This document shows, piece after piece, positions 1 through 63,556 of a DNA stretch of 64,000 bases. A program made the translations under genes and the position numbers. Source of the DNA: Polyangiales bacterium (GTDB lineage: Bacteria; Myxococcota_A; Polyangia; Polyangiales; Ga0077539); NCBI GenBank assembly GCA_044229975.1, contig JBGARZ010000011.1:128001-192000 (forward strand), in the 5' to 3' direction. Each line of letters starts with the position of its first letter. Positions within the stretch are counted from its first letter, which is position 1. The notes below the pieces were generated by a model. That model ran no database searches. It had not been told where the DNA came from and saw only the letters and a program-made list of their open reading frames with translations.

Positions 1-211
1 CCAGGTGCTCTACGCCCGCACCTACGCCATCCAGGTGCAGGACCGCGCGCTCTACACCCGACTTCTCCAGGAGGTCATCGACGCGGGGGACGTGCTGCCC
101 GACGAGCGCCTCGCCAACCTCGTCGCCAAGCGCCGCGCGCTGCGATATCTCACCGAGGCCGACGCGCTCTTTCCCCCCGCCGAGGCGCCCGCTGCCGAGG
201 TGCCCCCTTGA
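1..211 (+). CDS. TRAP transporter TatT (TPR) component, 3' fragment (gene starts before the window)
   Basis: C-terminal YARTYA..QDRALY..LL..V..A....P..RLAN..AKRRA pattern typical of the TatT family; stop overlaps the start of the DctP gene. Confidence 0.7.
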   Translation, partial: QVLYARTYAIQVQDRALYTRLLQEVIDAGDVLPDERLANLVAKRRALRYLTEADALFPPAEAPAAEVPP

Positions 212-1209
212 CCCGCACCGCCCTCGCCCTCGCTCTCATCGTCCCGGCCGCGGTCGTCGCGCAGCCCGCGGCCACCGCGCCCGCGCCGCGCACGCTCTCC
301 GTCGCCACGCTCGCGCCCATCGGCTCCACCTGGATGCGCGGCTTCGACGCCTGGAACCGCGAGCTCCGCCGGCGCACCCACGGCGCCCTCGCGCTGCGCT
401 TCTACCCCAACGGGGTGCAGGGCGATGAGGCCGAGGTGGTGCGGAAGATCCGCGCGCGACGGATCGACGGCGCGGCGCTCACGGGCGTCGGGCTCGGGGA
501 GATCCACCGCCCGACGCTGGTGTTTCAATCACCGGGGCTCTTCGCGGACTACGCGCAGCTCGACCGGGCGCGCGACGCGATGCGGCCCGAGCTCGACGCG
601 GCCTACGCGCAGGCGGGCTTCACGCTGCTGGGGTGGGGCGACGCCGGGCTCGATCGGGTGTTCTCCACGCGGGCGATTCCGGGGCCCGCGGAGTTTGCGT
701 CGACGCATCCGTTTCAGTGGCGCGAAGACCTCGTGGCCGAACCGCTCTACGCCGAGCTGCATGCGCGGGGGGTTCCGCTCCAGATCGGCGAGGTGCTCAC
801 GTCGCTACAGACGCACCAGATCGACACGATCATCGCGAGCCCCATCGCGGTGGCGTCGCTCCAGTGGGCCGCGCAGCTCTCGCACATGACCGACCACCCG
901 GTCGCCATCGAGATCGGCGCGCTGGTGTTCGGCCGCTCGCAGGTGGAGGGCCTCGCGCCTGAGTTGCAGACGGCGCTGCGCGAGACCGCCGCGCAGTATG
1001 CGGGTCTCCTCCAGCGCAACGTGCGCCGCGACGACGACGGAACCGTCACCCCGCTCCGCGCCCACGGCATGGTCGTCGACACGCCGACGGCGGCGCAGCG
1101 GGAGCAGTGGCAGTCGGCCTTCGCCCGAACGCGCGCGCGGCTGGTGGGCACGCTCGCCGACGCGGCCTTCTTCCAGCGGGTCGAGCGGGCGCGCGACCAG
1201 GGTCACTGA
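208..1209 (+). CDS. dctP: TRAP transporter substrate-binding protein (DctP/TatP type)
   Basis: Signal peptide; ATLAP.GS.W, FYP.GVQGDE..VVRKIR...IDG and GF.LLGWGD.G motifs. Confidence 0.85.
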   Translation: MTRTALALALIVPAAVVAQPAATAPAPRTLSVATLAPIGSTWMRGFDAWNRELRRRTHGALALRFYPNGVQGDEAEVVRKIRARRIDGAALTGVGLGEIHRPTLVFQSPGLFADYAQLDRARDAMRPELDAAYAQAGFTLLGWGDAGLDRVFSTRAIPGPAEFASTHPFQWREDLVAEPLYAELHARGVPLQIGEVLTSLQTHQIDTIIASPIAVASLQWAAQLSHMTDHPVAIEIGALVFGRSQVEGLAPELQTALRETAAQYAGLLQRNVRRDDDGTVTPLRAHGMVVDTPTAAQREQWQSAFARTRARLVGTLADAAFFQRVERARDQGH

Positions 1210-1578
1210 GCGGGCGACGCGGGCTGATCGACCCGGAAGACGAACACCCGCGAGCGGGCGGTCTCCACGGGCCCGCGCTCGTCCCCCGCGACCTCGACGC
1301 GATGCCAGCCGCCGCCTTCGCCCACGAGCTCGCGCGCCCCGAAGTGGCGCCGCCCGACCCGGCGATGGTCGAGCGGTGGCTGCAACAGACCTGCGGCGTG
1401 GGCCGTACCGCCGACGCGGCGTGGGGCGCGGCGCACGTGCGGGTGCCGGTCGCCATCGACGAGTGCTCGGGCGAGTCCCGCCGCCGGTGTCGTCATCGCA
1501 ACGAGCGCAACGCGGCCGCGGCGCTGACCATGGCGTGCGAAGCCAACGTCGTCGGAGAACTCCGCCGCTGAACCCCTC

Positions 1579-2184
1579 TCAGGGCAGGACGGCGGTGACT
1601 TCGACGACACCGCTGGCGACTCCGCCGATGAGCACGTCGACGACGTCCCCGAGGCCATAGGTCGCACGCGTGCGGTAGACGGGCGTCGAGGCCGTCGCGT
1701 CGGGCGAGGCGTACCGCTCGACGCAGCGATCGACCAGGTTGACGATCCAGTACACGGGGATGCCGGCGCGAGCGTAGCTGCGCAACTTGATGCCGCGATC
1801 GCGGTCGAGCGTGGAGTCGGACACCTCGACGACCAACGCGACATCCCCAGCGCCCGGGTGACGATCGGGATAGTCCTCCGCGCGGCCACGGATCACCGCC
1901 AGGTCTGGCTCGGGCTCACCGTCGTCGAGGGTGATCGGATCTTGCGAGCGCACCGACCAGCCGTCGGGGATGTGCCCAACGAGCGCGTGCAGGAGCTTCG
2001 CCAGCGCGATGACGTGCGGCGGGTTCTTCGCCTTCTTGAGCACCAGCACCCCTTCGAGGAGCTCGATGGGATCGTCGTCCGTGAACACCCCGGCGCGGAT
2101 GGCGGCGTGATACTGCGCCACCGACATCCGGTAGACGGGCTCGACGGGGACGACCTGCCGGGAATGGAGGACGTTCGCGAACAT
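1579..2184 (-). CDS. Uma2 family (DUF820) endonuclease-like protein
   Basis: SVAQYH...IELLEG, EPEPDLAV, LVVEVSDSTL..DR..K...YARAGIPVYWIVNL. Confidence 0.9.
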   Translation of the reverse strand: MFANVLHSRQVVPVEPVYRMSVAQYHAAIRAGVFTDDDPIELLEGVLVLKKAKNPPHVIALAKLLHALVGHIPDGWSVRSQDPITLDDGEPEPDLAVIRGRAEDYPDRHPGAGDVALVVEVSDSTLDRDRGIKLRSYARAGIPVYWIVNLVDRCVERYASPDATASTPVYRTRATYGLGDVVDVLIGGVASGVVEVTAVLP

Positions 2185-6041: not shown

Positions 6042-7136
6042 ATGAACCCTCACCGGCACCTCGCGTTGCTCTGCGCCCTCTCGCTGCAACCCGCCTGCGC
6101 GCGTCGCACCCGCGATCGCGGCAACGATCAACCCGCTGCCGCGCAGCCCGTCGCGCAGCCCGTCGCACGGCCCGCCACGCAGCCCGCTGTCGCACAGCCC
6201 GCCGCGCAGCCCGCCGCGCCGGAAGCAGCGCCAGCGCCGATCCCCGCGCCGACGGCGCCGATCACCCTTCAGCGCTCCATCGCGATCGGCCGCTGGCCCG
6301 AAGGGCTCTCCGCCCATGGCACCGAAGCGTGGGTGGCCGAGAGCGGCGGACGGACCATCGCCCACGTCGACTACGTCACCGGCGTCGTGCTCGGCCGAAC
6401 CCGCGCGGGGCGCCTGCCCACCCGCGTTCATCTCTCGGGTGACGGCACCGTCCAGGTCATGTCGGTGACCGATCAGACCGTCTGGACGCAGCCGCCCGGC
6501 GCCGCCGAGGTCACCCGACTGGCGCGCCTGCCCGACGCCCCGCAAGACGCGGTCTGGGCCGAGGACGGAACCCTCTGGGCGCTGCTCTGGACCCACGGTT
6601 CGTCGGCCTCGGGCGCGATCGTCCGCGTCGGGCCGGGCGACGCGTCGGTGACCCGCGTGGCCGAGGTCGGAGCGGACGCGATGTCCCTCACGGTCGGGCA
6701 CGGCAAGGTGTGGGTCGCGCACCATGGCGGCATCGTCTCGGTGGTCGACACGACGACCGGACAGGCGCTTCCGCCGCTCGCCGTCGAAGGGTTTCACAAC
6801 CAGATCGCGGCCTGCGCCCACGGCGTCTACGTGAGCGACCGCAACGCCGTGATCCGCATCGACCCGGCGACGGCGACGGTGTCGGGGCGCCAGTCGCTCA
6901 CCGACGACCCGCGCGCGCTGGCCTGCTCGGTCGACGGCGCGCTGTGGGCCATCGGGGCGCACGGACAGATCGGCCGGCTCGACCCGGCCTCGCTCGCCGT
7001 GGTCTCCACGGCGTCGCCGCCGATGGCCTTCGAGCCCGCCGCAGCACAGGTGGCCAACGGCAGCCTGCTGGTCACCACGCACGCCTACGGCGCGGGCGAC
7101 GCGGCCGGCGCGCTGCTGGTGTTCAACGCGCGGTGA
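6042..7136 (+). CDS. Secreted/lipoprotein beta-propeller (YncE/Vgb-like)
   Basis: Signal with Cys, Pro/Ala/Gln linker, repeated WVA...V.R.DP.T blades. Confidence 0.7.
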   Translation: MNPHRHLALLCALSLQPACARRTRDRGNDQPAAAQPVAQPVARPATQPAVAQPAAQPAAPEAAPAPIPAPTAPITLQRSIAIGRWPEGLSAHGTEAWVAESGGRTIAHVDYVTGVVLGRTRAGRLPTRVHLSGDGTVQVMSVTDQTVWTQPPGAAEVTRLARLPDAPQDAVWAEDGTLWALLWTHGSSASGAIVRVGPGDASVTRVAEVGADAMSLTVGHGKVWVAHHGGIVSVVDTTTGQALPPLAVEGFHNQIAACAHGVYVSDRNAVIRIDPATATVSGRQSLTDDPRALACSVDGALWAIGAHGQIGRLDPASLAVVSTASPPMAFEPAAAQVANGSLLVTTHAYGAGDAAGALLVFNAR

Positions 7137-11119: not shown

Positions 11120-11938
11120 GTGATCGAGCTCGACCTCCCCTCGGGGCGCCTTCGCGCGCACCGCTTCGGGCCCGATGGGGGGAGGCTCACCCTCTGCGTG
11201 CACGGGCTCTCCGCCAACTCGCGCAGCTACGACTTCCTCGGCCCCGAGCTCGCGGCGCAGGGTCGCTCCGTCGTCGCCATCGACCTCCGCGGCCGCGGCT
11301 GGAGCGCCATCACCGGCCGCGGAACCTACGGCTGGCACCACCACGCCCGCGACGTCCTCGACGCCGCGAGCGCCCTCGGCGCCGAGCGCTTCGACTATGT
11401 CGGTCACTCGATGGGGGCGTTCATCGGGCTGGAGCTCGCCCGCCAGGCCGCGGGCCGCGTCGAGCGCACCGTGCTCATCGACGCGCTCGGCATCCCGGAG
11501 CCCGCGTCGCTCATCCCCATCCTCGCCGCCGTGCAGCGCCTCGGCTCGCTGCACGCCGACGCCGACGCCTACGTGAGCGCCGTTCGCAGCCTCGGAACCG
11601 TCACCCCCTGGGGCCCCGTCTGGGAATCCCACTACCGCTACGACCTCATCCCGGTGGAGGGCGGCGTGCGTCCGCGCACCGACCGCGCCGCCGTCTTCGA
11701 AGACATGACCTACGCGTCCACGCAGGTTCCGCGGGCGCTCTGGCCCTCGCTCACCATGCCGACGCTGCTGGTGCGCGCGGGCATTCCTCTCGGGGCAGGC
11801 TTCATCGTCAGCGCGGGTGATCGGGAGGACTTCCTGCGACGCGTCCCCCACTCGCAGGCGGTCGACGTCGACGCCAACCACTACGGCATCATGACCCACC
11901 CGGCGACCGCGGCCGCCATTCGGAGCTTCCTGCCATGA
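11120..11938 (+). CDS. Alpha/beta hydrolase
   Basis: VHGL, DLRGRG.S, GHSMG nucleophile elbow, catalytic H in ANHYG. Confidence 0.9.
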   Translation: MIELDLPSGRLRAHRFGPDGGRLTLCVHGLSANSRSYDFLGPELAAQGRSVVAIDLRGRGWSAITGRGTYGWHHHARDVLDAASALGAERFDYVGHSMGAFIGLELARQAAGRVERTVLIDALGIPEPASLIPILAAVQRLGSLHADADAYVSAVRSLGTVTPWGPVWESHYRYDLIPVEGGVRPRTDRAAVFEDMTYASTQVPRALWPSLTMPTLLVRAGIPLGAGFIVSAGDREDFLRRVPHSQAVDVDANHYGIMTHPATAAAIRSFLP

Positions 11939-13747: not shown

Positions 13748-14680
13748 TCAGCCCGGTGGCGGGGTGAACACCGCGCGGTCGCGGCTCACGAGATACTCCT
13801 GACAGCGCAGTTGCAGGGCATCGGCCTGCGAGCGGTCCTTCGCGTGCAACGCCGTGTAGGCGCGGGCACAGGCGCAGAAATACATCTTCGACGCGGTGAA
13901 GCCCTGGACGACTCCATCGAGACGTTGCTTCTCGGCGCCGATGGCGGACGCGCGCTCTTCGAGTTTGCCCCACAGCAGCGTGATCAAGATCGCGCGCTGG
14001 AGCATCAGGTCGCTGCGGGTGTCGAGCGCGAAGAAGTCGATGCACACCCTCGCCCGCAGATGCTCGTACCCGGACTTCTTGCGCGCGAAGGGCAGCGGGC
14101 CCACCCAGCCGAGCACCTCCTCGGGGTCTTCGACGTTCTCGCCGATCCCGAGCATCAGCAACGGACGCTCGTGGGCGTCGAGAGCGGCGTGCTTGATCAG
14201 CGACTTCTTCGTGGCGCCCGCGATCGGGAAGCTGTCGCTCTTGTGCCCCGAGTTGCACGTCTTGCACGAGAGCCCGTAGTTGTCCGGGTCGAACGCGAGG
14301 CGGACATACCCGGCGCTCTCGCCCGCGTTGATCTCGTCGTCGTAGTCGATCTTTCGCTGCGCCTTGACCGCCGCGGTCGGCCAGTCCTTCACCCGGTTCT
14401 TCGGGCGGTAGTGCTCCACGTCGTACTCGACGGCGCCCTTGCCGAACCCCGCCTCGCCGTCGACCTCCTCCTGCGGCATGGGCTTCTCGCAGTAGACGCA
14501 CTTGTAGAACTGTAGCCGCGCATACACCGCCTTGATCTCGCTCCAGATCCCGTCGTCCTCGTCGACGTGACCCTTCTTGCGAACTTCGATGGTCTTCTCG
14601 CGGGCCCGCTCCAGCCAACCGGCCTTGTGCGCTTCGATCTCTTCTCGCAGCGCCTTGGAGGTCACCGCGTATCGAATCAT
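13748..14680 (-). CDS. HNH endonuclease (PtuB/TIGR02646-like), partner of upstream ATPase
   Basis: KCVYCE...VEHYRPK...LAF...NY.LSC..CN...K.D.FP...PLL; ATGA overlap with the ATPase stop. Confidence 0.8.
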   Translation of the reverse strand: MIRYAVTSKALREEIEAHKAGWLERAREKTIEVRKKGHVDEDDGIWSEIKAVYARLQFYKCVYCEKPMPQEEVDGEAGFGKGAVEYDVEHYRPKNRVKDWPTAAVKAQRKIDYDDEINAGESAGYVRLAFDPDNYGLSCKTCNSGHKSDSFPIAGATKKSLIKHAALDAHERPLLMLGIGENVEDPEEVLGWVGPLPFARKKSGYEHLRARVCIDFFALDTRSDLMLQRAILITLLWGKLEERASAIGAEKQRLDGVVQGFTASKMYFCACARAYTALHAKDRSQADALQLRCQEYLVSRDRAVFTPPPG

Positions 14681-16089
14681 CGACCGACCCCAGCGGCCGC
14701 GCGCTTCGCAGGCTTCTTCGCGGCCGACTTCTTCGCAGCGGGCTTCTTCTTCGCGGGAGCCTTTCGTGGCTTACGACGCGATGGCTCGGACACCATCGGC
14801 GGTGCTTCGCCCGCGGCGTCACCCAGCGAGAGCAGCCTCATGAGGTGCATGGCCGCCTCGGCGTCCCCGTTGCGCGCCTGCTGCGACGCCTCCTGGAGCT
14901 TCTCGACGAAGGCGGGCGCGCGCGTGCTCTCCAGCCCGAAGGTGTCGCCGGTGAGAAGCTGCTCGGCTCCGAGACCGAAGGTCTCCGCGCCAGGGCGTTC
15001 GACGACGGTCCTGCGAACGCCGTCGCCCTCGTCCACGTCGGACAACACCAGTACGTTCTCGCGGTGCAGCGACCCGACCACGAGCGGGCTGTGCGTCGAG
15101 AAGATGAACTGCATGTGCGGCAGCGCGTCTGCCACGCGCGGAACCACCTCGCGCTGCCACGCGGGGTGGAGGTGCAGGTCGACCTCATCGATCAAGACGA
15201 TCCCCGTGGTCTGATCGAGCTGATGGTTTGGGGGAGCGCCGCGACAGATGTGGAAGAGCAGATCGGCGAACCAGCCGATGAAGGAGCGGTACCCGTCGGA
15301 GAGCGCGGAGAGCGGCAGCGAGGAGCCGCGCAGCGAGAAGAGGTAGTCGCCGTCGTTGGGCTCCGGGTCGATCGCCGCGTCGGGCAGCACCTTGTTGATG
15401 AGTTCGATGACCTGCTGGTGCCGCCCGGGGTTCTCGCTCCTCAAACGTGGCAGCCACGAGGCGACGGGGACGAGCGCGACGCTCTCCTCGAACAGCCCCG
15501 CGATGCGGTCGTAGCGGAGGGCGCGGCGCTTGTAGCGCGACTCGGTATCCGCGTGGTTCTGCGACTCGACACGACGGTCGGCGCCGTAGCCCACCACCAA
15601 CGCAGCGCCGGAACGATCGTCGAAAAGGGACTCGGCGAAGTCTCGACCGATGCGGTCCGTGGGTGGTGGCGTGAGGCCGCTCGCGATGCGGTCATTGAAC
15701 GAACTGCCCGGCCGGAGCAGGAGTTCGAAGGTGATGTCGCCGATCTCCTTCTCCTTGCCCACAAACGCCGGATTGTCCTGTCGCGGATACAGCGAGAACG
15801 AACCTCGAACGGACGCGGCGGGTGCTGGGACCCCTTTGACTCGACGCACGAGGCTGTACGGCACGAAGCCCGAGCCAGAAAGCAGAACCGGCGCCATCGC
15901 CGCCATCGCGATGGCCCGCAGCACGGTGGTCTTCCCCGAGCCGTTGTTGCCGAGCAGCACGGTGAGGTTGTCGCGAGACCCGTCCGTCGACGATGGAGCA
16001 ACCGCGCCCGGGAGCCGAGGCGCCTTCAGCGCGATGGACTCCGACGCGATCGTCCGAAGGTTCTCGATGGTGATCTTGGTGACGTACAT
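14677..16089 (-). CDS. ABC-type AAA ATPase (AAA_21/PtuA-like) with Lys/Ala-rich tail
   Basis: Walker A GNNGSGKT, signature LSDGY, Walker B LIDEVDLHLHP.WQ, H-loop STHSP. Confidence 0.88.
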   Translation of the reverse strand: MYVTKITIENLRTIASESIALKAPRLPGAVAPSSTDGSRDNLTVLLGNNGSGKTTVLRAIAMAAMAPVLLSGSGFVPYSLVRRVKGVPAPAASVRGSFSLYPRQDNPAFVGKEKEIGDITFELLLRPGSSFNDRIASGLTPPPTDRIGRDFAESLFDDRSGAALVVGYGADRRVESQNHADTESRYKRRALRYDRIAGLFEESVALVPVASWLPRLRSENPGRHQQVIELINKVLPDAAIDPEPNDGDYLFSLRGSSLPLSALSDGYRSFIGWFADLLFHICRGAPPNHQLDQTTGIVLIDEVDLHLHPAWQREVVPRVADALPHMQFIFSTHSPLVVGSLHRENVLVLSDVDEGDGVRRTVVERPGAETFGLGAEQLLTGDTFGLESTRAPAFVEKLQEASQQARNGDAEAAMHLMRLLSLGDAAGEAPPMVSEPSRRKPRKAPAKKKPAAKKSAAKKPAKRAAAGVGR

Positions 16090-17421: not shown

Positions 17422-18084
17422 TCAGACGTCTCCTCGCATGAGCTGCCCCTGCCGTCGAAGCTCGGACGCGATGAACGGGGCGCGGTACTCCAGGTACGCC
17501 AGGTCGATGCCCCTGACACCCGGCCCGCGTCGGTACTCGTCGACGTACCGCCTCCGCTGCACACAGCAGTCTCGAATGTTGAGCAGCGGCAACGTCGCGT
17601 CGATCTTCGGGTGCTGCGCCTTCGGTGCAGCCGCGCCCCGAACAACGCGGTAGCTGGCGAGGTCCAGAGCGAACCAACCGACCTTCGCATCGACGGGGTC
17701 GACGAGACCGAGAAGCTCGCCCTTCTTCGAGTTCACGACGCCGGTGCAGAGTCTGTAGTTAGACCACTCGTACACGCGGTCCCACGCGAGCGACTTCGGA
17801 AGGACGTGGTCGACGGTCGGGCTTCCCGTCTCCTCGATGAACATCGCCAGGTACGCGCAGCGCTGCTCGTACACCTTCATCATGTCGTCGAGCGCCTCAC
17901 GCCAGAACGGCGGGAACTTGTCGCCCGGGATCGTCGACTCGGAGTCGGCGATCTTGGCGCGCCGAGGTCCACTCCGCTTGATGCGCGGCGCACGCCCCAC
18001 CAGCTCGTCGATCGCCGAGAGGCCCGGCTGACGGATCTTCGCGTCAAAGCTCTTTGGCTCCCGTGCCAGGGCGATCGGGATCAC
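17422..18084 (-). CDS. HNH-like endonuclease, partner of second ATPase
   Basis: RCAY...TVDHVLPKS....YEWSNYRL....NSKK; GTGA overlap with the ATPase stop. Confidence 0.78.
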   Translation of the reverse strand: MIPIALAREPKSFDAKIRQPGLSAIDELVGRAPRIKRSGPRRAKIADSESTIPGDKFPPFWREALDDMMKVYEQRCAYLAMFIEETGSPTVDHVLPKSLAWDRVYEWSNYRLCTGVVNSKKGELLGLVDPVDAKVGWFALDLASYRVVRGAAAPKAQHPKIDATLPLLNIRDCCVQRRRYVDEYRRGPGVRGIDLAYLEYRAPFIASELRRQGQLMRGDV

Positions 18085-19415
18085 GACCTCGGCTCCCGCT
18101 TTCCGTCGCCCCGGGCCGTGGACTTCTTCGAGGCCTTCTTCGTGTGCTGCTCCCTGAAGTAGCCCCACTGCACCCAGAACGGATCGATGTCGGGGAGGCC
18201 CGCCCTCCGAAGTCCCTGGTCTGCCTTCTCGATGGCTTTCGCCGAAGGGGCCACCGCGTCGAGGACGGCCTGGGCCGCCGCGATGGCCTGTTCTCCTTCG
18301 AGCGAACGAGGCTCCTTCAGGTCAAACGCCTCGCTCACGAGCCAGTTTCCGATTTCGCCGTGGCGGATGAACGGACGCTTCCTGAGCACGACCTGCTTCT
18401 TCTCGAGGTCCAGGTCGAACCACGCGTCCTGGTCGACGTCGAAGACGGGCTCCACCGAGGCGAGCACGAGGGGCGAGTGCGTCGCCGCGATGAGCTGAAG
18501 CCGAACGTCCTTGCCAAGCGCTCGGAGCAGGCTGGGGAGGATGGTCCGTTGCCACTTCGGGTGGAGGTGGCCTTCGACCTCGTCGACGAGCAACACCAGC
18601 GAGTCGTTCGGTGCGCGCTTCTTGAGCGACGCGGCGACCCTGTGTTCGCGCCATGCCCACACCACCAGGTACGCGAGCCCCAGGATACGCCGCATCCCTG
18701 CTGGTGCGTGGGCCACCGGGAGTTCACCGGCGGGGCCCTGGAGGAAGGGAAAGTCGCGCGCGTCGTCGACGTAGACGCGCCCGACCTTGCGCGTCAGGCG
18801 AAACGACTGCTCGTCGGCAAGGTCTCCCACCAACGCGGCGAGGCGCTCGAACTCGACGCTGTCGGGTTCCACCGCCCAGCGAACGACGTCTCGCACGAGG
18901 CCCTCACAGATGCGGGCCGCCCTGTCGTCACCGTCCAACGCGAGGCCATCCCAGACCTGCGCTTCGTTGAACTGGAACGCGTTGCTCCGCCCCCATGCCG
19001 CCCGCCGTGACGGGAGGCGGAAGGCCTCACCAGCACGGAGCGGATCATGGACCGAGATGCCACCGTCGACCCGGACGTAGACGACGAGCCCGCCTCCGTA
19101 TTGGTCCTGTCGAGGATGCTCAGCAAGCGTGGTCGTCTTCCAGGCCGAGCCGTCAAAGTCGTACCGAGCCTGGGCTTCGATCGCGACACCGCCGCGGCGC
19201 TCGACCCATTCAATCGCGGCATCCTCCCTCTCAGGAACGGCACCCTTGCCGGACCAGGTCGCGGGCCACGTCCGGGTCAGCGCCCACCATGCGCTGTCGA
19301 GGAGGAGCGTCTTCCCGAGGCCGTTGTCGCCGGTGATGAGGTTGAGCCGCGGCGCGAGGTCCAGCGTCATCTCGGGTGCAGGTCCGACGCCCCGGAGGTG
19401 GAGAGACTCAAGCAT
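18081..19415 (-). CDS. ABC-type AAA ATPase (AAA_21 family)
   Basis: GDNGLGKT, variant signature APAGMRR, LVDEVEGHLHPKWQ, ATHSP. Confidence 0.88.
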   Translation of the reverse strand: MLESLHLRGVGPAPEMTLDLAPRLNLITGDNGLGKTLLLDSAWWALTRTWPATWSGKGAVPEREDAAIEWVERRGGVAIEAQARYDFDGSAWKTTTLAEHPRQDQYGGGLVVYVRVDGGISVHDPLRAGEAFRLPSRRAAWGRSNAFQFNEAQVWDGLALDGDDRAARICEGLVRDVVRWAVEPDSVEFERLAALVGDLADEQSFRLTRKVGRVYVDDARDFPFLQGPAGELPVAHAPAGMRRILGLAYLVVWAWREHRVAASLKKRAPNDSLVLLVDEVEGHLHPKWQRTILPSLLRALGKDVRLQLIAATHSPLVLASVEPVFDVDQDAWFDLDLEKKQVVLRKRPFIRHGEIGNWLVSEAFDLKEPRSLEGEQAIAAAQAVLDAVAPSAKAIEKADQGLRRAGLPDIDPFWVQWGYFREQHTKKASKKSTARGDGKREPRS

Positions 19416-27941: not shown

Positions 27942-30899
27942 ATGAGACCTTCCATCAGCGCGCTGCTGTGCGCACTCACGCTCGCCGCCTGCGCGCCCAA
28001 CGCTCCCGTCTTCCCCGGCGACGCGGCCCCTGTCCTCGACGTCCCTGCCCTCGACGTCCCTGCCCTCGACGTCCCTGCCCTCGATGTTCCCGGCACCGAC
28101 GCACTGACCGCCGACAGGCCCGATGCGCTGCCCGCCGTCGACGTCGCCCCGGTCGCAGACGCGGACGTGGTGCCCGTCGTCGACGCGCCGCCGGTCCGGT
28201 GCACGGACAACGCCGACTGTCGCGGTCAGGTGTGCGAGCGCCTGTCGGGGCGCTGCATCGAGTGCCTCGGCCAGGGCGACTGCACCATGGGGCGCGTGTG
28301 CAGCCTCAACCGCTGCGTCGCACCCGTGATGTGCACCTCGTCGCGGATGTGCCCCGGCCAGGTCTGCGACCTCCTGCGTGGCCTCTGCGCCGACTGCAAC
28401 GCGGACGTCGACTGTAGTGGCGGCCAGATCTGCCGTAGCAACGTCTGCGTCCTGCCGCCGCGCGCCTGCCGATCGTCGCGGGAGTGCAGCGACATCGGGC
28501 TCGTGTGCAGCACCGCGCTCGGCCAGTGCGTCGAGTGCGCGGGCGACAACGACTGCGCCATGGGGCAGTTCTGCGGGACGGACACGGCGTGCCACGCGCA
28601 GGTGTGCGTCCCCAACGCGACCACCTGCATCAACGCGCGGCAGTCCAGGGTCTGCGACGCGCGCGGCTCGGCCCTCAACGACGTGGCGTGCCCGTCGGGC
28701 CAGTACTGCCGCGAGAGCCGCTGCCAGGCGCCCAACTGCGCGCCCGGTTCGGCGAGCTGCTCCGCGTCGGGCGTCCGGCAGGTGTGCAGCGACGACGGGG
28801 CTGCCCCCATCCCGATGCCCTGCGGCGCCGACGAGAGCTGCCTCGGCGGCGTGTGCATGACGCGGGTGTGTGTTCCGGGCGCGCCCTCGTGCACGACCGC
28901 CACCACGAGCCGCCGCGTGTGCCGCGCCGACGGCCTCGGCTACGACACCCTCCCCTGCGCCTCTCGCGAGAGCTGCCAGGGCGGCGCGTGCACCGCGTGG
29001 TCGTGCACGCCGGGTGAGAGCGTCTGCGCGAGCTCGACCGCGCGGTCGGTGTGCAACGGCGATGGGCTCGGGCAGACGACGATCGCCTGCACCTCCACGC
29101 AGCGATGCAACGGCGGCGTGTGCCAGGAGCAGATCTGCGCGCCGGGGACGGCGTCGTGCGTCGACGGCCGCACCGTGCGCGCGTGCAGCGACGACGGCCT
29201 GCGGTATGGGACCAGCACCTGCCCCTCGATGTCGACCTGCGCGAGCGGCGCGTGCTCGTCGTGGGTGTGCACGCCGGGCACCGCGACCTGCGCGGGGAGC
29301 ACCGCGCGCAACGTCTGCAACGCCGACGGGCTCGGCCAGACCAGCGCGCCGTGTCCGCTGGCGCCCAACGCCTCGGCGACGACGTGCACGGGCGGGGCGT
29401 GCGGGTTCGTGTGTCAGGCGACCTTCGGCGACTGCAACGCCAACGCGTCGGACGGCTGCGAGACGGCGCTCAACAACGCCTCGCGGCACTGCGGGGCGTG
29501 CGGCAACGCGTGCGCCTCGGCGCAGGTGTGCCGGAGCGGCGCGTGCGTGCTCGACTGCCCGAGCGGGCGCACCGCGTGCGGGACGGTGTGCGTCGACCTC
29601 CAGGGCGACGCGGCCAACTGCGGCGCGTGCGGCGTGGCGTGCGCGACGGGCCAGGTGTGCGCGGGGGGGAGCTGCCGGGTGGGCTGCTCGGACGGTCGCC
29701 CGGTGTGCGGGAGCGCGTGCTGCGCGACGGGGCTGTCGTGCGCGGCGGGGGTGTGCGCGCCCTTTCCGTCGACGGGCGCGGACGGGGCCTTCGCGCCGAC
29801 GTCGAGCCAGTCGCTGCCCGCGCGTATCTACAACTTCACGACCATCACCATCCCCGCAGGCGTGATCATCACGACGAGCGGCAACGCCACGCTCGACCTC
29901 CGCGCGACGGGCGACGTCCTCGTCGCGGGCACCGTCGACGTGAGCGGATCGCGCGGCGGCAACGGGACGACCTACACCGGCTGCGACGCGGGCACCCGGG
30001 GCGGCGGCGGCGCGACGGGCACACCGAGCTCACCGGGCCGCGACGGGCAGACCACCTGCGCGAGCGCGGCGACGGGCGGCTCCGGCGCGGCGGGCGGGTC
30101 GTCGAGCACGTCGCGGTACTGCATCAACGTGGGCGGCTCCTTCGGCGGCGGCTCGGGTGGCGGCATCTGCGAGGGCGGCGGTGGTGGCGGCGGCTACGCG
30201 GGCGGCGGCGGCGGCGGTGGCTACACGGCCTACTCCGGAGGCAGAGGCGCCTCGTCGGGCGGCTCGATGGGCGGCGCGGCGGGGGCCGGTGCCACCAGCG
30301 GCGGAGGCTTGGGCGGCGGCGGCGGCAACGCGGCGGGCGGGTACTCGGGCGGCGTCGGCAGCCGGTCGTCGACCTGCGACACCTACGCGGGTGGCGGCGG
30401 CGGCGGCGGCTCCATCGGCAACGTGGCGGCGGGTGACCTGGCGATGGCGACGACGTTCTATCCGGGCTCGGGGGGTGGTGGAGGCGGGGCTTCGTGTACG
30501 TGCAACCGACCCGGCGGCGGCGGTGGTGGTGGAGGCGGCGGCGCGCTTCGCATCGCGACGGTCGCGACGCTCACGGTATCCGGGAGCCTCCTGGCCAACG
30601 GCGGCGTGGGCGGCAACTCGGCCCAGGGGTCGGGCGGCGGCGGCGGCGGGTCGGGCGGCGCGATCTTCCTCTCGGCTCCCACGCTCACCGTCTCCGGAAC
30701 GCTGTCCGCGGTGGGCGGCGCGGGCGGCACCACGGGCACCTGCACCAACTTCGGCGGCGCGGGCGGCACCGGGCGCATCCGCGTCAGCGCGGCGACGGCG
30801 ACGTGCATGCTGGGCGGGACGTTCAACCCGCCGCTGGTGAGCGGCTGCGCGGCCGCGAGCACCAGCGGCCGCACCTACGTCGCGGCGTATCCCGACTGA
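27942..30899 (+). CDS. Large Cys-rich repeat lipoprotein with Gly-rich C-terminal domain (985 aa)
   Basis: Lipobox LAAC; C.PG...C.....R..C..DG.G repeats, NCGACG repeats, YNFT.ITI and GGGGG.GGAI Gly-rich head. Confidence 0.85.
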   Translation: MRPSISALLCALTLAACAPNAPVFPGDAAPVLDVPALDVPALDVPALDVPGTDALTADRPDALPAVDVAPVADADVVPVVDAPPVRCTDNADCRGQVCERLSGRCIECLGQGDCTMGRVCSLNRCVAPVMCTSSRMCPGQVCDLLRGLCADCNADVDCSGGQICRSNVCVLPPRACRSSRECSDIGLVCSTALGQCVECAGDNDCAMGQFCGTDTACHAQVCVPNATTCINARQSRVCDARGSALNDVACPSGQYCRESRCQAPNCAPGSASCSASGVRQVCSDDGAAPIPMPCGADESCLGGVCMTRVCVPGAPSCTTATTSRRVCRADGLGYDTLPCASRESCQGGACTAWSCTPGESVCASSTARSVCNGDGLGQTTIACTSTQRCNGGVCQEQICAPGTASCVDGRTVRACSDDGLRYGTSTCPSMSTCASGACSSWVCTPGTATCAGSTARNVCNADGLGQTSAPCPLAPNASATTCTGGACGFVCQATFGDCNANASDGCETALNNASRHCGACGNACASAQVCRSGACVLDCPSGRTACGTVCVDLQGDAANCGACGVACATGQVCAGGSCRVGCSDGRPVCGSACCATGLSCAAGVCAPFPSTGADGAFAPTSSQSLPARIYNFTTITIPAGVIITTSGNATLDLRATGDVLVAGTVDVSGSRGGNGTTYTGCDAGTRGGGGATGTPSSPGRDGQTTCASAATGGSGAAGGSSSTSRYCINVGGSFGGGSGGGICEGGGGGGGYAGGGGGGGYTAYSGGRGASSGGSMGGAAGAGATSGGGLGGGGGNAAGGYSGGVGSRSSTCDTYAGGGGGGGSIGNVAAGDLAMATTFYPGSGGGGGGASCTCNRPGGGGGGGGGGALRIATVATLTVSGSLLANGGVGGNSAQGSGGGGGGSGGAIFLSAPTLTVSGTLSAVGGAGGTTGTCTNFGGAGGTGRIRVSAATATCMLGGTFNPPLVSGCAAASTSGRTYVAAYPD
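28035..28092 (+). repeat. 15-bp coding tandem repeat (LDVPA, about 4 copies)
   Basis: ctcgacgtccctgcc x3 plus a variant. Confidence 0.85.
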
Positions 30900-41006: not shown

Positions 41007-41576
41007 TTAGGAGACCTTCCGCCGCAACGCGACCGCCGCGTCGCGCGTGGCGCTCTCCTCGGCGTGCTCTTCGATGCGCTTCAGGCGCTGCACCAGCACC
41101 GGCTTGCGCTTCGGAACCTGCCCCATCAGCAGGTGCTCCAGCTTGCCGATGGCGTCGCGCACGCGGTCTTCGTTGCGGTGCTCGAGCATCTGGAGAAACA
41201 CCTCCTGGTCGTCGGGCAGCGTGTGCCCGGCGTTGAGGAAGCCGTCGATGGAGTCGGAGATGGACTTGGTGCTCTGCGCCGCGAGGATCTTCCGGAGCTG
41301 GTCTTGCCGGCGGTTGGGCCCGGGCTCGCCGACCGCCGTCGCGGTCTCGACCACCTTGGGCATCCTGATCGCGGGAGCCAGCTTCTCCATCGCCTCGACC
41401 GCGTCGGGCTTCTTCTGGAAGAGCGCCTCGAGCGCCGCCTTGTACTCACGGTTGGCCGTGGTCGCCGCGCCCTTCTGCTCGTGACGCGCGAGCGTCTCGG
41501 TCGCATGGAAGCTCGACGAACGCGCGCGATCGATGTCACGCCAGCTCTTCTTCGCGGTGCCTGGTTCACGCGGCAT
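41007..41576 (-). CDS. Conserved-looking hypothetical helical protein
   Basis: KKSWRDIDR, YK.ALEALF, LPDDQEV..Q.LEH; coding codon usage. Confidence 0.7.
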   Translation of the reverse strand: MPREPGTAKKSWRDIDRARSSSFHATETLARHEQKGAATTANREYKAALEALFQKKPDAVEAMEKLAPAIRMPKVVETATAVGEPGPNRRQDQLRKILAAQSTKSISDSIDGFLNAGHTLPDDQEVFLQMLEHRNEDRVRDAIGKLEHLLMGQVPKRKPVLVQRLKRIEEHAEESATRDAAVALRRKVS

Positions 41577-43250: not shown

Positions 43251-46200
43251 ATGCGACGCAGCCCCCTCGCTTTACTCCTCTGTGTATTGGCGATGGTCGC
43301 CGCGTGCGCCGACCCGCAGCGCGCCAACCCCCCGGCCGACGTCGGCTACGTCAAGGACATGGACGCCGGGATCTATCCCGACATCCAGGCGGTGGAGGTT
43401 CCCAACCGGGACGAGCGCCCCGTCGGACCGATGACCGGGCAGCGCTGCCCCGACGACCGCTTCTGCCCCGCGGGCACCCGCTGCATCGGCGGTCGCTGTG
43501 CCGAAGACCCGTGCTCCACCACGCAGAACTCCTGTGGCGAGACCGCCACCTGCTACGCCCAGTGCGTCGCCGTGCGTGACCCCTGCGCGGGCGTCACCTG
43601 CGCGGCGCGCGAGACCTGCGTCGAGGGTCGCTGCGTCGCGGGCTGTTTCCCGACGCCCTGCACCGGCGTGGTGTGCGCCGACGGGCAGTACTGCGACCCC
43701 GGCACCGGCGACTGCGTGGCCGTGCGCCCCTGCACCGCGCCCTGTCCCGACGGCCAGGCGTGTCACCTCCAGTGTTATCCCCGCACGGCCTGTGATGGCG
43801 TCACCTGCGCCACCGGCCAGTACTGCGTCGAGGGCCGCTGCGTCGACAACCCCTGCGCCAGCGTGACCTGCGCCGAGGGCTCGGTGTGCGTCAACGGCCG
43901 CTGCCTCGACTCGTGCCAGTGCGACCCGGCGTGCAACCGCGGCCGCAACGACCGCTGCGTCTTCGGGATGTGCGTGTGCACCCCGGACTGCTCGCCCGAC
44001 GCGCCCTGCGGCGCCGAGGACGGCTGCGGCGGGCGCTGCCCCGGCTCGTGCTCCCGCGCGGGCGAGACGTGCAACCCGACGACGCGCATGTGCGAGTGCG
44101 TTCCGTCGTGCCCGGCGGGCGCGGCGTGCGGGTCGGACAACGGCTGCGGCGGGCGATGCGACGGCGGCTGCGGCACCAACGAGCGCTGCGACCCGGCCGC
44201 CCGCGCCTGCGTCTGCGACCCGCGCTGCCCCGACACCAACCCCTCCACCGTCGCGTGCGGCGAGGCCATCGCCAACGTCTGCCCCGGTCAGCCCGCGTGC
44301 GGCACCGGAACCCGCTGCGCCGACGGCCAGGCCTGCGTGGCCGGGCGCTGTCAGTGCACCGTCTCCTGCCCCGCGGCGAGCGCCGTCGACTGCGGTCAGC
44401 CCATCCGCACCGGCTGCACCGGCTCGCTCTGCGCGGGCACCGGAACCCGCTGCGCCGCCGGGACGGTCTGCACCGCGGGCGTGTGTCGTTGCGCGCCGAG
44501 CTGCCCCAGCGTGAGCCCGCTCTCGGTGACGTGCGGCGCGCCCATCGCCAACGCGTGCCCCGGTGAGCCCGCGTGCGGGTCGGGCCTCATGTGCCCGCCG
44601 GGTCAGCGCTGCAACGCCATGGGCACCTGCGAGTGCGTCTCGTCGTGCCCGGCACCCAGCACCGTCGCGTGCGGCGCGCCCGTCGTCGGCTCGTGCCCCG
44701 GCGTCCCCTGCCCCAGCGCCGGAACCATGTGCCCCGTCGGCCAGGTGTGCACCGACGGCCGCTGCGCGTGTGATCCGCTGTGCCCCGGCGCCGCGTCGGT
44801 CGCGTGCGGCATGCCCATCACCAACCGCTGCCCCGGCAACGCCTGCACCGGCACCGGGACGCAGTGCCCCGCGGGCCAGCGCTGCAACGCATCGAACGTG
44901 TGCGAGTGCGTCCCGGCGTGCCCGGCGGCGAGCTCCGTCGCGTGCGGGACGGCCATCCCCAACGTGTGCCCCGGCAACACCTGCCCCGGCACCGGAACGC
45001 AATGCCCGTCGGGCATGACCTGCTCGGGCGGCACCTGCGTGTGCGCCTCGTCGTGCCCGGCGGCCAACACCGTCACGTGCGGCGCGGCCATCACCAACCG
45101 CTGCGCGGGCCTCACGTGCACCGGCACCGGGACGCTCTGCCCATCGGGGCAGACGTGCACGGGCGGCACCTGCGTGTGCACCAACCGCTGCCCCACCACG
45201 AGCCCTTCGACGGTCGCGTGCGGGACCACCATCGCCAACGTCTGCCCGGGCGGCCCGTCGTGCGGGACGGGGACGATGTGCCCGTCGGGACAGACGTGCT
45301 CCGGGGGCGTGTGCGTGTGCAACCCGATGTGCCCGGCGGTGAGCACCGTCGCGTGCGGGCAGTCGCCGCCGAGCCGCTGCGCCGGCGTCACCTGCCCCGG
45401 CACCGGGACGCTGTGCCCATCGGGTCAGGCATGCACGGGCGGGGTGTGCACGTGCGTTCCGCGGTGCCCTGATGCGAGCACCGTCGACTGCGGATCCGAG
45501 GTGGCCAACGTCTGCCCGGGTCAGCCCGTGTGCAGCTTCGGCACGCGCTGCGACTCCGGGTCGCTCTGCATCTCCAACCGCTGCCAGTGCACCTCCATGT
45601 GCCCGACCACGAGTCCGGCGGCGGTTCCGTGCGGGGTGAGCATCCCCAACCTGTGCAGCGGCGCGCCCGCGTGCGGGACCGGGACGCAGTGCCCGGCCGG
45701 GCAGTTCTGCAACAGCTCGACGCGCGCGTGTCAGTGCGCGCCCATGTGCCCCGCCGTCGACAGCTCGCTCTACGACTGCGGCGCGGCCATCCCCAACACC
45801 TGCGCGGGCGGACCTTCGTGCGGCACGGGCACCCGCTGCCCCTCGGGCCAGGCGTGCACGGGCGGGGTATGCCAGTGCGTTCCTGCGTGCCCGACCACCG
45901 ACCCGGCCACCGTCACCTGCGGCGCAACCATCGCCAACGTCTGCTCGGGCGGCCCCTCGTGTGGTCGCGGAACGCTCTGCCCCACCGGCCAGGTGTGCAG
46001 CTCGTCGGGGACGTGCGTGTGCACCCCGCGCTGCGCCCCCGACGCCGAGTGCGGCGCGAGCGACGGCTGCGGCGGTCAGTGCGTCGGTCGCTGCGCCGAA
46101 GGGCGCGTGTGCACGCGGGACACGGTGGACACCACGCGGCTGTTCTGCGCGCCCGCGTCGTGCCCGACGGGTTGCGCCTGCGGGCAGGTGTGCAGCTTCG

Positions 46201-46310
46201 GGACGTGCGTCTCGCTCTGCGCGCCGGGCACCCGCATCTGCGGCTGCAACAACTGCTGCGCCGGGTCGCAGGTGTGCACCGGCGGCGTGTGCGTCGGACC
46301 GCCGCCGTAG
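43251..46310 (+). CDS. Very Cys-rich tandem-repeat lipoprotein (1019 aa)
   Basis: Lipobox VAAC; 13 tandem 8-Cys units of about 45-48 aa plus DGCGG.C modules. Confidence 0.85.
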   Translation: MRRSPLALLLCVLAMVAACADPQRANPPADVGYVKDMDAGIYPDIQAVEVPNRDERPVGPMTGQRCPDDRFCPAGTRCIGGRCAEDPCSTTQNSCGETATCYAQCVAVRDPCAGVTCAARETCVEGRCVAGCFPTPCTGVVCADGQYCDPGTGDCVAVRPCTAPCPDGQACHLQCYPRTACDGVTCATGQYCVEGRCVDNPCASVTCAEGSVCVNGRCLDSCQCDPACNRGRNDRCVFGMCVCTPDCSPDAPCGAEDGCGGRCPGSCSRAGETCNPTTRMCECVPSCPAGAACGSDNGCGGRCDGGCGTNERCDPAARACVCDPRCPDTNPSTVACGEAIANVCPGQPACGTGTRCADGQACVAGRCQCTVSCPAASAVDCGQPIRTGCTGSLCAGTGTRCAAGTVCTAGVCRCAPSCPSVSPLSVTCGAPIANACPGEPACGSGLMCPPGQRCNAMGTCECVSSCPAPSTVACGAPVVGSCPGVPCPSAGTMCPVGQVCTDGRCACDPLCPGAASVACGMPITNRCPGNACTGTGTQCPAGQRCNASNVCECVPACPAASSVACGTAIPNVCPGNTCPGTGTQCPSGMTCSGGTCVCASSCPAANTVTCGAAITNRCAGLTCTGTGTLCPSGQTCTGGTCVCTNRCPTTSPSTVACGTTIANVCPGGPSCGTGTMCPSGQTCSGGVCVCNPMCPAVSTVACGQSPPSRCAGVTCPGTGTLCPSGQACTGGVCTCVPRCPDASTVDCGSEVANVCPGQPVCSFGTRCDSGSLCISNRCQCTSMCPTTSPAAVPCGVSIPNLCSGAPACGTGTQCPAGQFCNSSTRACQCAPMCPAVDSSLYDCGAAIPNTCAGGPSCGTGTRCPSGQACTGGVCQCVPACPTTDPATVTCGATIANVCSGGPSCGRGTLCPTGQVCSSSGTCVCTPRCAPDAECGASDGCGGQCVGRCAEGRVCTRDTVDTTRLFCAPASCPTGCACGQVCSFGTCVSLCAPGTRICGCNNCCAGSQVCTGGVCVGPPP

Positions 46311-60775: not shown

Positions 60776-60811
60776 GAACTGATGGGCGACGCGAGGCTGC
60801 GGGGGGCCTTC

Positions 60812-61522: not shown

Positions 61523-62082
61523 GCGGAGGCTCCTCCCAACAGGGCGGCCAGGATCTGCGGACCGGGTTCGCCGCGGGCAGCGCGCTCGCGGACGAAGGTG
61601 CAAGCGGCCTCGGCGCCGAGGAAGAGCGTGAGCGCGTCGTCCTCGGTGGAGAGGATCGTGGCGCTGGTCTCGACGCCCGCGACGTCGCTGACCACGTCGG
61701 CGATGAGCCTCGTGGCGAAACGGTGGAAGGCGGCGTCGGTGGCGGGGGGGGAGTTCCAGTGGAGGGTGAGGGCCTCGCCGTAGCGCTCGAAGGAGCAGGT
61801 GCCGAGGCCGCGCTGACCGAGCGCGAGGGCGATGGCGTAGGCGACCTCCTCGGGGGTCGGGTCGGGCGTGGCGTCGAGGATGGTGACCGCGTCCTTGGCG
61901 ACGGCCTCGGCGAGGGACTTCGTCAGCGGGTCGACGTTGTCACCGAGGGCCGTGATGGCGCGCGCGAGCCACGTCGCAGGGACGGCGACGGCGCGGGCGA
62001 CGGAGGGGGTCTTGAGTTCGAGTCGACCGCGCGACAGGTCAACCGTCAGGGCGCTCGCGAGGGGGTGCAGTCGGGTTGCCAC
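61519..62082 (-). CDS. Hypothetical protein, V4R-like
   Basis: V..DL.RG, GLG....ERYG.AL pattern. Confidence 0.5.
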   Translation of the reverse strand: MATRLHPLASALTVDLSRGRLELKTPSVARAVAVPATWLARAITALGDNVDPLTKSLAEAVAKDAVTILDATPDPTPEEVAYAIALALGQRGLGTCSFERYGEALTLHWNSPPATDAAFHRFATRLIADVVSDVAGVETSATILSTEDDALTLFLGAEAACTFVRERAARGEPGPQILAALLGGASA

Positions 62083-62161
62083 GGCCCGCGACGATCGCAC
62101 ACCGCCCGCGGCGCCCGCAAATACCTTGGAACCTCCCCCCTCTTTGGCACACTCACCGTCG

Positions 62162-63556
62162 ATGCCCCCTCGTTGGACCGCGCTGGCGCTCGCCCTGGCC
62201 CTCTGCTCCAGCGCGGCGCAGGCGCAGTCCCCGCGCTGGCCCGAGCGGGCGTACGGGCAGGCGATTCCGATGGACGGGGTACGACCCACGGGCGAAGCGG
62301 GTGTGCTGCGCTCGTGGCGGGCGCCCGTCGACGTGCACGTGATGCCGGGCGTCGACGCGGCGACGGCGCAGGCGGTGCTCGCGGACGCCGAGGCGGTGAT
62401 GGACGGGTTGGAGCGCGTAGGGGTCGCGCTGCCGCTGCCTGACGGCAACCGCGGGGGGACGCCGTCGTTCGACCTGTACCTCGACCCGTACATGATCGCC
62501 TCGGGTCACGGTCCGATCGAAGTAGCCGAGACGTCCGGGGAGCTGCGGACGGAGGTCGACGCGTTGTCCTACGGCGGGATGTGGGACCGGGCGACTGCGT
62601 TCGCGGTGATACCCGTCGCGGCTGACCGGGCGGTGCAGCGCCGCGCGGTGGCGCAGGCGATCGCGGAGGCGTGCGTCTACGGCGCGAAGGCTGACCACCC
62701 CATCGGGTTCGTGCGGGCGATGGGCGCGAGCCTCGCGCGGCGGGCGACGGGTCTGCCGCTCGACCCCGACGACGTGCGCGAGTTCCAGCGTGAGCCGACG
62801 CGTGCGTGGTGGTCGGACGACACGCGCTCGCCCTCGGCGCAGCGTGGCGCGGCGGTGGTGCTCGACGCGATGGCGGCGCGCTGGGACAACGATCGCGCGA
62901 GCTTCCTGCGCGGCTTGATGGAGGCGCCCGTACAGCGCACGCCCCCCGGCTGGGCCCGCCTCTGGAACGAACCCGACGTGATGGAGGTCCTCCGCCGGGT
63001 GACGCGCGACGAGCCGCGTGGCTTCTGGGGGGGATTGCTGACGGCCGCGAGCGCCCGCTCCCTGGTGGGCACGCCCGGTGACGTCGGTGACGTCGGTGGT
63101 GGCGGGCTCGATGCGTCGCTGGCTGCGCTCCCGGCGCGGGTGGTGCGCTGGGGCGAGCTGCCGGCGTGGACGCTGGTGACGGGCATCGCGCCCACGGGGA
63201 GCGCGTCGATGGAGGTGACGCTCGGTGATGCGCCGGTGCAGACGGCCGTCGCGGTGTGGGTGCACGCGTCGCCGTACCACCGGTGGATGGCCTCGGTGCT
63301 GCGCGTCGCCAACGACGGCCACGTCATCGGGAGCATCGACTCGGAGCTCATCACCGACGGCGAGTGGTCGGCGCGGGTGGATGCGTTGGAGGATGTTCGG
63401 CGGCTGGTGGTGGTGGTGGTGAGCGCGGGCGACGGGGAGCTCGACCCCGATGGAGCGCCCGTGCGCGACGGCTGGGTGGCGATGAACGTCGGGGTGTCGT
63501 CAGCCGGCGGAGCCGGTGGTCAGCCGACGCGCGAGGGCCACCAGGCGGTCCACTGA
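62162..63556 (+). CDS. Secreted protein resembling myxobacterial metalloprotease N-terminus, without HExxH
   Basis: Signal peptide (AQA); P.PDG.RGG...FDLYL; no Zn motif. Confidence 0.55.
   Translation: MPPRWTALALALALCSSAAQAQSPRWPERAYGQAIPMDGVRPTGEAGVLRSWRAPVDVHVMPGVDAATAQAVLADAEAVMDGLERVGVALPLPDGNRGGTPSFDLYLDPYMIASGHGPIEVAETSGELRTEVDALSYGGMWDRATAFAVIPVAADRAVQRRAVAQAIAEACVYGAKADHPIGFVRAMGASLARRATGLPLDPDDVREFQREPTRAWWSDDTRSPSAQRGAAVVLDAMAARWDNDRASFLRGLMEAPVQRTPPGWARLWNEPDVMEVLRRVTRDEPRGFWGGLLTAASARSLVGTPGDVGDVGGGGLDASLAALPARVVRWGELPAWTLVTGIAPTGSASMEVTLGDAPVQTAVAVWVHASPYHRWMASVLRVANDGHVIGSIDSELITDGEWSARVDALEDVRRLVVVVVSAGDGELDPDGAPVRDGWVAMNVGVSSAGGAGGQPTREGHQAVH

Follow-up and report, generated by a model that had tools for sequence, protein, structure and literature searches.

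Apparent replacement of lysine by arginine in protein parts predicted outside the cytoplasm across a family of Polyangiales bacteria

We analysed a 64,000-nucleotide stretch (the window, G000:C2:128001-192000) of a draft bacterial genome whose exported proteins had been predicted, from the letters of the window, to be essentially free of lysine (Lys). The compositions reported below suggest that the whole family of the source genome, named f1 here, swapped Lys for arginine (Arg) in nearly all protein segments with a predicted location outside the cytoplasm, opposite to the usual bacterial rule. Shielding of the envelope from a Lys-oxidising enzyme, such as the cell's own lysyl oxidase, is the likely reason for the swap. 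About a quarter of the genes of this 10 Mb genome encode exported proteins that nearly avoid one amino acid, contrary to the published Lys preference of secreted bacterial proteins.

Lysine on the two sides of the inner membrane

The source genome (G000) is a draft of 10.0 Mb with 71% GC and 93% completeness, and its order is inferred to be Polyangiales. A self-trained caller gave 7,820 genes (88.6% coding), which were sorted by a hydrophobicity-based classifier that did not use the Lys content of the mature part. Our headline figures rest on lipoproteins, kinases and orthologues; the lipoprotein class was clean, and the signal-peptidase-I class contained many false positives. Mature lipoproteins (1,040; 437,099 aa) contained 0.23% Lys and 7.96% Arg, whereas the 3,583 cytoplasmic calls contained 2.45% Lys and 9.37% Arg, giving Lys/(Lys+Arg) values of 0.029 and 0.207. 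Just six of 1,073 lipoprotein calls had at least 2% Lys. The original prediction had proposed compartment-specific selection against Lys, and this held genome-wide, within single proteins, across f1 and against GC-matched relatives: Lys content was not similar in the two compartments, nor were GC-matched myxobacteria equally depleted.

The contrast was visible within single proteins. In 78 single-pass Ser/Thr kinases, Lys was 2.31% on the cytoplasmic side and 0.083% on the outer side, where 70 of the 78 had none. The step lay at the membrane, with 1.65% Lys over the first five outer residues and 0-0.24% farther out (85 kinases). Lys was also low in the large loops of RND-like proteins (0.62%, n=16), in Tat-like proteins (0.63%, n=19) and in exported CxxCH proteins (0.33%, n=75), and 24 low-GC3, possibly recently acquired lipoproteins were purged as well (0.25%). 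In a set filtered at 2% Lys, depletion was 12- to 21-fold in each sequence context and 70-fold in Cys-rich stretches. Residual exported Lys was surrounded by hydrophobic residues, and the five in BamA were at conserved positions. The purge extends to the periplasm and the surface, to substrates of both Sec and Tat and to every context; net charge is kept, and signal peptides and the cytoplasm are spared. We conclude that, as far as sequence data can carry the point, selection against exposed Lys beyond the inner membrane is established.

In the window, our recount of the 12 exported proteins named in the original tally gave the same 11 Lys in 6,766 aa (0.16%), with every single value matching. 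The counts for three cytoplasmic comparators (GuaA, BdhA and the protein at 41007-41576, 15 Lys/189 aa) were also correct. Our own topology classes put 13 Lys in the 6,415 aa classed as exported (binomial P ~7e-51 if Lys occurred at the cytoplasmic rate). The features counted were:

208..1209, + strand, DctP-type periplasmic solute-binding protein (PF03480), 1 Lys/333 aa
3069..4553, + strand, Cys-rich repeat lipoprotein, 1 Lys/494 aa, located in the signal peptide
6042..7136, + strand, exported protein with no Pfam match, 1 Lys/364 aa
16137..17360, - strand, VWA-domain lipoprotein (PF13519), 0 Lys/407 aa
26517..27740, - strand, lysyl oxidase lipoprotein (PF01186), 2 Lys/407 aa (K49 in the tether; K186 at the presumed cofactor-forming Lys position)
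27942..30899, + strand, Cys/Gly-rich lipoprotein, 0 Lys/985 aa
36796..37134, + strand, PEGA-domain lipoprotein (PF08308), 0 Lys/112 aa
37910..39472, + strand, FadL-like outer-membrane protein (PF03349 weak, below cut-off), 3 Lys/520 aa, one in the signal peptide
43251..46310, + strand, Cys-rich repeat lipoprotein, 1 Lys/1019 aa
48224..52174, + strand, large Cys-rich lipoprotein, 0 Lys/1316 aa
52186..53223, + strand, FGE-sulfatase-domain lipoprotein (PF03781), 1 Lys/345 aa
62162..63556, + strand, exported protein with no Pfam match, 1 Lys/464 aa
35252..36796, + strand, GuaA, cytoplasmic comparator, 14 Lys/514 aa
11935..12705, + strand, short-chain dehydrogenase (BdhA), cytoplasmic comparator, 10 Lys/256 aa

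Exported proteins had also been called rich in Asn, Ile, Phe and Tyr. This was borne out for Asn (2.82% exported vs 1.81% cytoplasmic) and failed for Ile (2.60 vs 3.16%), Phe (2.74 vs 3.00%) and Tyr (1.85 vs 1.85%). Because Ile, Phe and Tyr are not depleted in exported proteins, GC bias is rejected. Two caveats raised at the outset are minor. The Lys-free alpha/beta hydrolase at 11120-11938 is one of 119 Lys-free proteins among 2,759 "cytoplasmic" calls of at least 200 aa, and the Lys-free calls include many missed signal peptides. The membrane protein at 30914-32215 has nine Lys: its first large loop contains five, its C-terminal tail two and a predicted outer loop two; the first large loop and the tail are probably cytoplasmic. 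An Rfam scan of the window gave no match, and no RNA data set was listed as carrying the stretch.

Orthologues, relatives and compositional explanations

We compared 100 BamA sequences over 743 core columns. The depleted, intermediate and Lys-rich groups were set by the BamA Lys count itself, and therefore independent measures (lipoproteins and the cytoplasmic enzyme AlaRS) matter. The core contained 4-6 Lys in all 19 f1 members, at locus GC of 0.57-0.73; beyond f1 it contained 3-7 in five genomes, 9-19 in twelve and 20-52 in 64 Myxococcota. DctP homologues had 1-4 Lys per ~300 aa at 20 loci within f1. In f1, BamA contained 0.72% Lys and 11.25% Arg; in 23 references of the same order it contained 3.47% and 8.67%. 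The shares of Asp, Glu, Asn, Gln and Tyr hardly differed, and together these figures point to a charge-conserving change from Lys to Arg. Mapped on a predicted structure (pLDDT 87), the periplasmic POTRA part had 1.0% Lys in f1 vs 6.3-6.4%, and the outer loops 0.16% vs 1.4-1.9%. On this model the outer loops appear to be Lys-poor already in many relatives, and the mark of f1 is the extension into the periplasm.

A side effect of high GC, Lys economy, halophily or a Sec-export constraint is already largely refuted, and we consider it highly improbable. The 71% GC of the genome is in its favour, as is the weaker depletion of Tat-like substrates relative to Sec lipoproteins. Two other low-Lys genomes (G033 and G073; L172, L180, L145, L097) are low in both compartments, with AlaRS at 1.0% and 1.5% Lys, and show a different, whole-proteome depletion. 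However, in the GC-matched comparison proposed with the original prediction (GC at least 0.66), lipoproteins had 0.22% Lys in depleted genomes (19 proteins) and 3.33% in reference genomes (38), whereas cytoplasmic proteins were equal at 2.74% and 2.68%, and f1 members at 57-61% GC were purged to the same degree. Signal peptides were alike in depleted and reference genomes (Lys share 0.09 vs 0.11, all loci). AlaRS had 3.8-5.9% Lys in six f1 genomes (one partial) and 2.8-5.6% in 14 references; the AlaRS check showed compartment-specific depletion in G036, G197 and G222 as well. Against Lys economy, Arg contains more nitrogen than Lys, and lysA and all Lys tRNAs are present in the source genome; the presence of lysA also ruled out Lys auxotrophy. 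Against halophily, Asp+Glu did not rise (BamA 11.8% in f1, 12.8% in references). Sec favours Lys over Arg according to the available part of PMC9110029, and Tat substrates are still four-fold depleted.

An alkaline outside or an inverted pH gradient, under which Lys would lose its charge or export advantage and be replaced by Arg, fits poorly and seems very unlikely to us. The swap does conserve charge, Arg is preferred over Lys in exported proteins, and the available part of PMC9110029 reports that the alkaliphile Bacillus halodurans reverses the usual Lys preference of secreted proteins. Nevertheless, we saw neither an acid shift nor a loss of Tyr. The Mrp Na+/H+ antiporter has a role in alkaliphily, and its subunit MnhB was not found in G000, G036, G197 or G222 (91-97% complete) by a search that matched in 8 of 14 controls. 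Three activated-sludge runs and one aquaculture run contained pieces of 150-223 bases with 0-1 differences, at depth 2-4; no piece covers the whole stretch, and one of the runs is possibly the source sample. Activated sludge and aquaculture are near-neutral, and CY agar has a pH of ~7.2. The soil isolate Sandaracinus amylolyticus was cultured on standard CY agar at 28-30 C (PMC5010890, available part), and most myxobacteria grow at pH 6.5-8.5 (PMC6164225, available part).

Beyond f1, a BamA of 853 aa, attributed to S. amylolyticus by its source, has 4 Lys and 90 Arg and belongs to a clade apart from f1, mostly with 2-5 Lys. We take family f64 to be this Sandaracinus clade by inference from 63% BamA identity; across four genomes, seven loci gave 0.08-0.89% Lys in its exported proteins. 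Another depleted group, made up of G197 and G222, falls outside the order. In contrast, Labilithrix luteola BamA has 29 Lys, and reference Myxococcota follow the usual bacterial rule (lipoproteins 3.3-3.8% Lys, cytoplasm 2.7-3.4%). The trees (FastTree) have weak support at several deep nodes, and several family labels depend on one BamA; the topology allows several losses, or an early loss followed by regains. The trait appears to have been gained or lost several times in one phylum, and its presence in a cultured, harmless species opens the cause to direct test. In depleted G222, a contractile injection system (L154-L155, G222:C150; two sheath proteins and a tube) had a normal 3.1-5.7% Lys. 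These proteins are assembled in the cytoplasm, and their retention of Lys therefore points at the envelope, not the medium.

Lysine deserts are known in ubiquitin-system proteins, catalytic chains of AB toxins and Actinobacteria with pupylation (available parts of PMC13696103 and PMC10665810), where long Lys-free stretches are likewise read as protection from a Lys-directed reaction. By the Szulc definition (Lys-free over at least 50% of a protein of at least 150 aa), 954 of 1,058 lipoproteins and 845 of 3,142 cytoplasmic calls in the source genome are deserts. The known cases, however, concern individual proteins or cytoplasmic proteomes that are exposed to ubiquitin or Pup, whose ligases act in the cytoplasm; here a whole extracytoplasmic compartment is depleted, the cytoplasm is normal and AlaRS is unaffected. 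The words "secreted", "extracellular", "periplasm" and "compartment" do not occur in the 2026 review of lysine deserts (PMC13696103). The Sec-substrate bias reversed in B. halodurans (Allen et al. 2022, PMC9110029, available part) is also a compartment-specific Lys/Arg shift, but G000 turns the rule round to near-complete exclusion of Lys and shows nothing that would indicate alkaliphily. We found no description of a Lys-purged envelope in Myxococcota or other neutrophilic bacteria in a literature composed mostly of non-subscription papers, although the 8,881-proteome table of PMC10665810 may include these taxa without comment; the word "lysine" is absent from PMC11928666.

Lysyl oxidase and other candidate agents

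The window oxidase is a candidate cause or beneficiary of the purge. It matches PF01186 with E 1e-31 and 110.7 bits (curated cut-off 20.4), its copper His motif CHNHWH, GHKQSFC (K186) and GWYDLY are intact, and its predicted fold (pLDDT 91) matches human LOXL2 (5ZE3) with TM 0.76 and E 8e-12. We know of no natural substrate or role for bacterial lysyl oxidases. The roles that we give to the three copper His and to the cofactor Lys and Tyr positions are in part presumed. They follow the available parts of PMC4448552 and PMC6452851, and the window oxidase shares these positions and the fold with the prokaryotic enzymes described there and with LOXL2. Its C-terminal domain is Cys-rich, as in the Sorangium enzyme as far as the available account describes it. 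A second lysyl oxidase lipoprotein of the source genome, on contig C23, has intact catalytic motifs and the catalytic Lys as its sole Lys; we found no third, divergent oxidase in this genome, an Atlas search giving one lead at 0.82.

Oxidases are themselves poor in Lys. Pooled, 97 homologues had 0.52% Lys, and 77 of them had one or two. Long multidomain oxidases in Lys-rich hosts had 0.1-1.4% (e.g. 3/1260, 1/779, 3/600, 4/501), with two exceptions near 2%; the median of reference lipoproteins is 3.4% (n=93). This fits selection against Lys near an active enzyme, although a position on the surface, or descent from purged donors, could play a part as well. Neither this poverty nor an association with purged envelopes is mentioned in the available parts of PMC4448552 and PMC6452851. 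Within the order, oxidase carriage was strongly associated with depletion: among depleted or intermediate families, carriers numbered 22/24 in f1, 11/24 in f64, 3/3 in f15, 1/1 in f10, 1/1 in f13, 1/2 in f14 and 0/1 in f5 (39/56 in total), compared with 9/90 in nine Lys-rich families; the count covers families with a Lys measure, leaving out four single-genome families and G294. Searching with a bacterial profile brought in divergent copies from G244 and corroborated those of G061, G067 and G056.

We hypothesize, at somewhat less than even confidence, that the purge is due to the cell's own envelope amine oxidase acting on exposed Lys amines, the prime candidate being the lysyl oxidase lipoproteins. 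A self-made amine oxidase is favoured because the pattern is amine-specific, charge-conserving and context-independent, and because it is the only tested candidate whose distribution tracks the trait. Lysyl oxidase would convert peptidyl Lys to an aldehyde that cross-links, and Arg would preserve charge without a primary amine. In this lineage nearly all Lys has been removed from protein parts predicted beyond the inner membrane, much of it replaced by Arg, with the purge beginning some five residues past the membrane and a few conserved Lys spared. There may be two tiers, an idea that draws on small samples: in most hosts the purge would be limited to the oxidase, possibly together with some surface proteins, whereas f1 and the Sandaracinus clade would purge the whole envelope, so that the enzyme could act on prey, matrix or free amines while the cell came to no harm. 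The archaeal homologue oxidises Lys-containing polypeptides, and inhibition by 3-aminopropionitrile was shown for this homologue alone (PMC6452851, available part). The initial proposal of self-protection from a secreted Lys-targeting enzyme stays a hypothesis, for which the window oxidase appears to be the best candidate. A stronger form, which we think possible but rather doubtful, is that several myxobacterial lineages have proteome-wide self-immunity by amino-acid exclusion, with an envelope of 19 amino acids and a self-made lysyl oxidase that attacks or cross-links Lys-bearing foreign protein and leaves self untouched.

Several observations weigh against this explanation. Our first phylum-wide search found the oxidase in 35 of 201 genomes and argued against a link, as f45, f26 and part of f9 have both the gene and a Lys-rich BamA. 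The family test (6/7 vs 0/9) used a 45% threshold chosen after the data were seen, and families are not independent. With the sensitive bacterial profile no oxidase was found in strongly depleted G022, G024, G235, G073 and G222 (the last two 97% complete) or in intermediate G028, G239, G035, G229 and G092. Conversely, nine of ten f45 genomes and G068, G228, G122, G071, G080 and G324 carry an oxidase with 21-37 Lys in BamA, and within f9, f17 and f26 its presence makes no visible difference to Lys. Across genomes, the oxidase is neither necessary nor sufficient for the purge. Lipoproteins of oxidase-rich f45 look bimodal (9/25 below 1% Lys and 15/25 at 3% or more; 3/63 below 1% at Polyangiaceae-like loci), a split amounting to about six independent genes. 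The link could run in reverse, a purged envelope merely tolerating the enzyme, and the archaeal homologue is poorly expressed in its host (PMC6452851, available part). Blocked N-termini are not enriched (Gln at +1 is 26% in G000 and 26% in same-order references). Nor is the purge complete: Skp (G000:C11:281638-282249) keeps 9 Lys in 203 aa, and 9-17 in depleted lineages compared with 18-33 in most references; short outer loops of 64 multi-pass proteins have 1.2% Lys vs 1.5% inside, at uncertain orientation; and four sensor-kinase loops have 10/609 (1.6%). Skp is the one consistent periplasmic exception, and pilin N-terminal helices are a further one.

Alternatively, Lys-specific enzymes or amine-reactive compounds (quinones, aldehydes) of competitors, prey or habitat could be responsible, the purge being a defence and the cell's own lysyl oxidase being retained only since it no longer does harm. 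We regard such an external agent as unlikely. It would accommodate the ten depleted or intermediate genomes without an oxidase and the Lys-poor BamA outer loops of many Lys-rich, oxidase-free Myxococcota (0-2 Lys in ~174 aa in f4, f8 and f16; pooled 1.9% vs 6.4% in POTRA). However, His and N-terminal amines show no reduction, the distribution of the trait closely matches clades, and the released contractile-tail proteins of G222 retain Lys. The outer membrane of f1 may differ, as lpxC is missing from 14/14 f1 genomes, but it is missing from 56/80 genomes overall, many of them Lys-rich, and is present in depleted G036. Loss of lipopolysaccharide (LPS) as a cause, promising in 3/4 depleted genomes, was rejected on these counts. 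Separately, the absence of lpxC (lipid A synthesis) from 56/80 Myxococcota, including G000 and 13 other f1 genomes, suggests that outer membranes without LPS may be widespread among Myxococcota.

A different self-made, Lys-specific periplasmic enzyme (protease, transpeptidase, cross-linker or acyltransferase) seems quite unlikely to us; as a protease it would digest foreign protein and spare self. The near-absence of Lys-rich lipoproteins noted above looks like a hard filter, such an enzyme would account for the oxidase-free depleted genomes, and two caspase-like and 21 HExxH proteins are exported. The caspase-like proteins (G000:C20:34001-36070 and C26:106562-108088) have His-Gly/Cys motifs and 1-2 Lys. 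Against a Lys-specific protease, we found no M35 (the Lys-N family; 0/5 genomes, the controls being silent too), and in G000 neither the API-type S1 motif of Lys-C nor C25, the Lys-gingipain family (C25 in 1/5). Lys-Pro/Pro-Lys was not enriched overall or in flexible linkers (4 seen, 4.2 expected), and residual Lys showed no sparing of helices. Transglutaminase-like genes occur in 59/60 genomes and the L,D-transpeptidase gene YkuD in 5/5 whatever the Lys state. Copper amine oxidase and LodA were each found in 0/5 genomes and not in G000, and none of the enzyme terms looked for is present in the S. amylolyticus supplement of PMC5010890.

If a self-made oxidase is indeed the cause, bacterial lysyl oxidases would gain a biological role, and self/non-self discrimination would be written in amino-acid composition. 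Whatever the cause, Lys content strongly marks where a protein of these lineages is located, and their enzymes constitute naturally occurring Lys-free scaffolds.

Further candidates and neighbouring genes

Pyroglutamate blocking of N-termini was rejected, as glutaminyl cyclase occurs in G000 only of five genomes and Gln at +1 is not enriched. The cyclase genes are at G000:C14:49658-50365 and C14:35212-35550, and about a quarter of signal-peptidase-I products begin with Gln across the order. A dedicated Lys-rich exported substrate was also rejected, the top candidates being FtsY and other cytoplasm-facing proteins, and no Lys-repeat or tail-tag partner stood out in G000. The FtsY-like protein (G000:C11:494159-495583) has a predicted N-terminal membrane anchor and a Lys-bearing Pro/Ala repeat linker (36 Lys). 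At f45 loci L281, L282, L283 and L284, the oxidase gene adjoins one for a conserved exported protein of 457-519 aa with 2-4 Lys, a possible partner. A single tyrosinase-domain gene (G000:C19:242513-243016) was found in G000 only among five depleted genomes. Finally, the window contains two Lys-rich, lower-GC gene pairs (13748-16089 and 17422-19370; an ATPase-like protein and a partner), which are probably acquired cytoplasmic modules.

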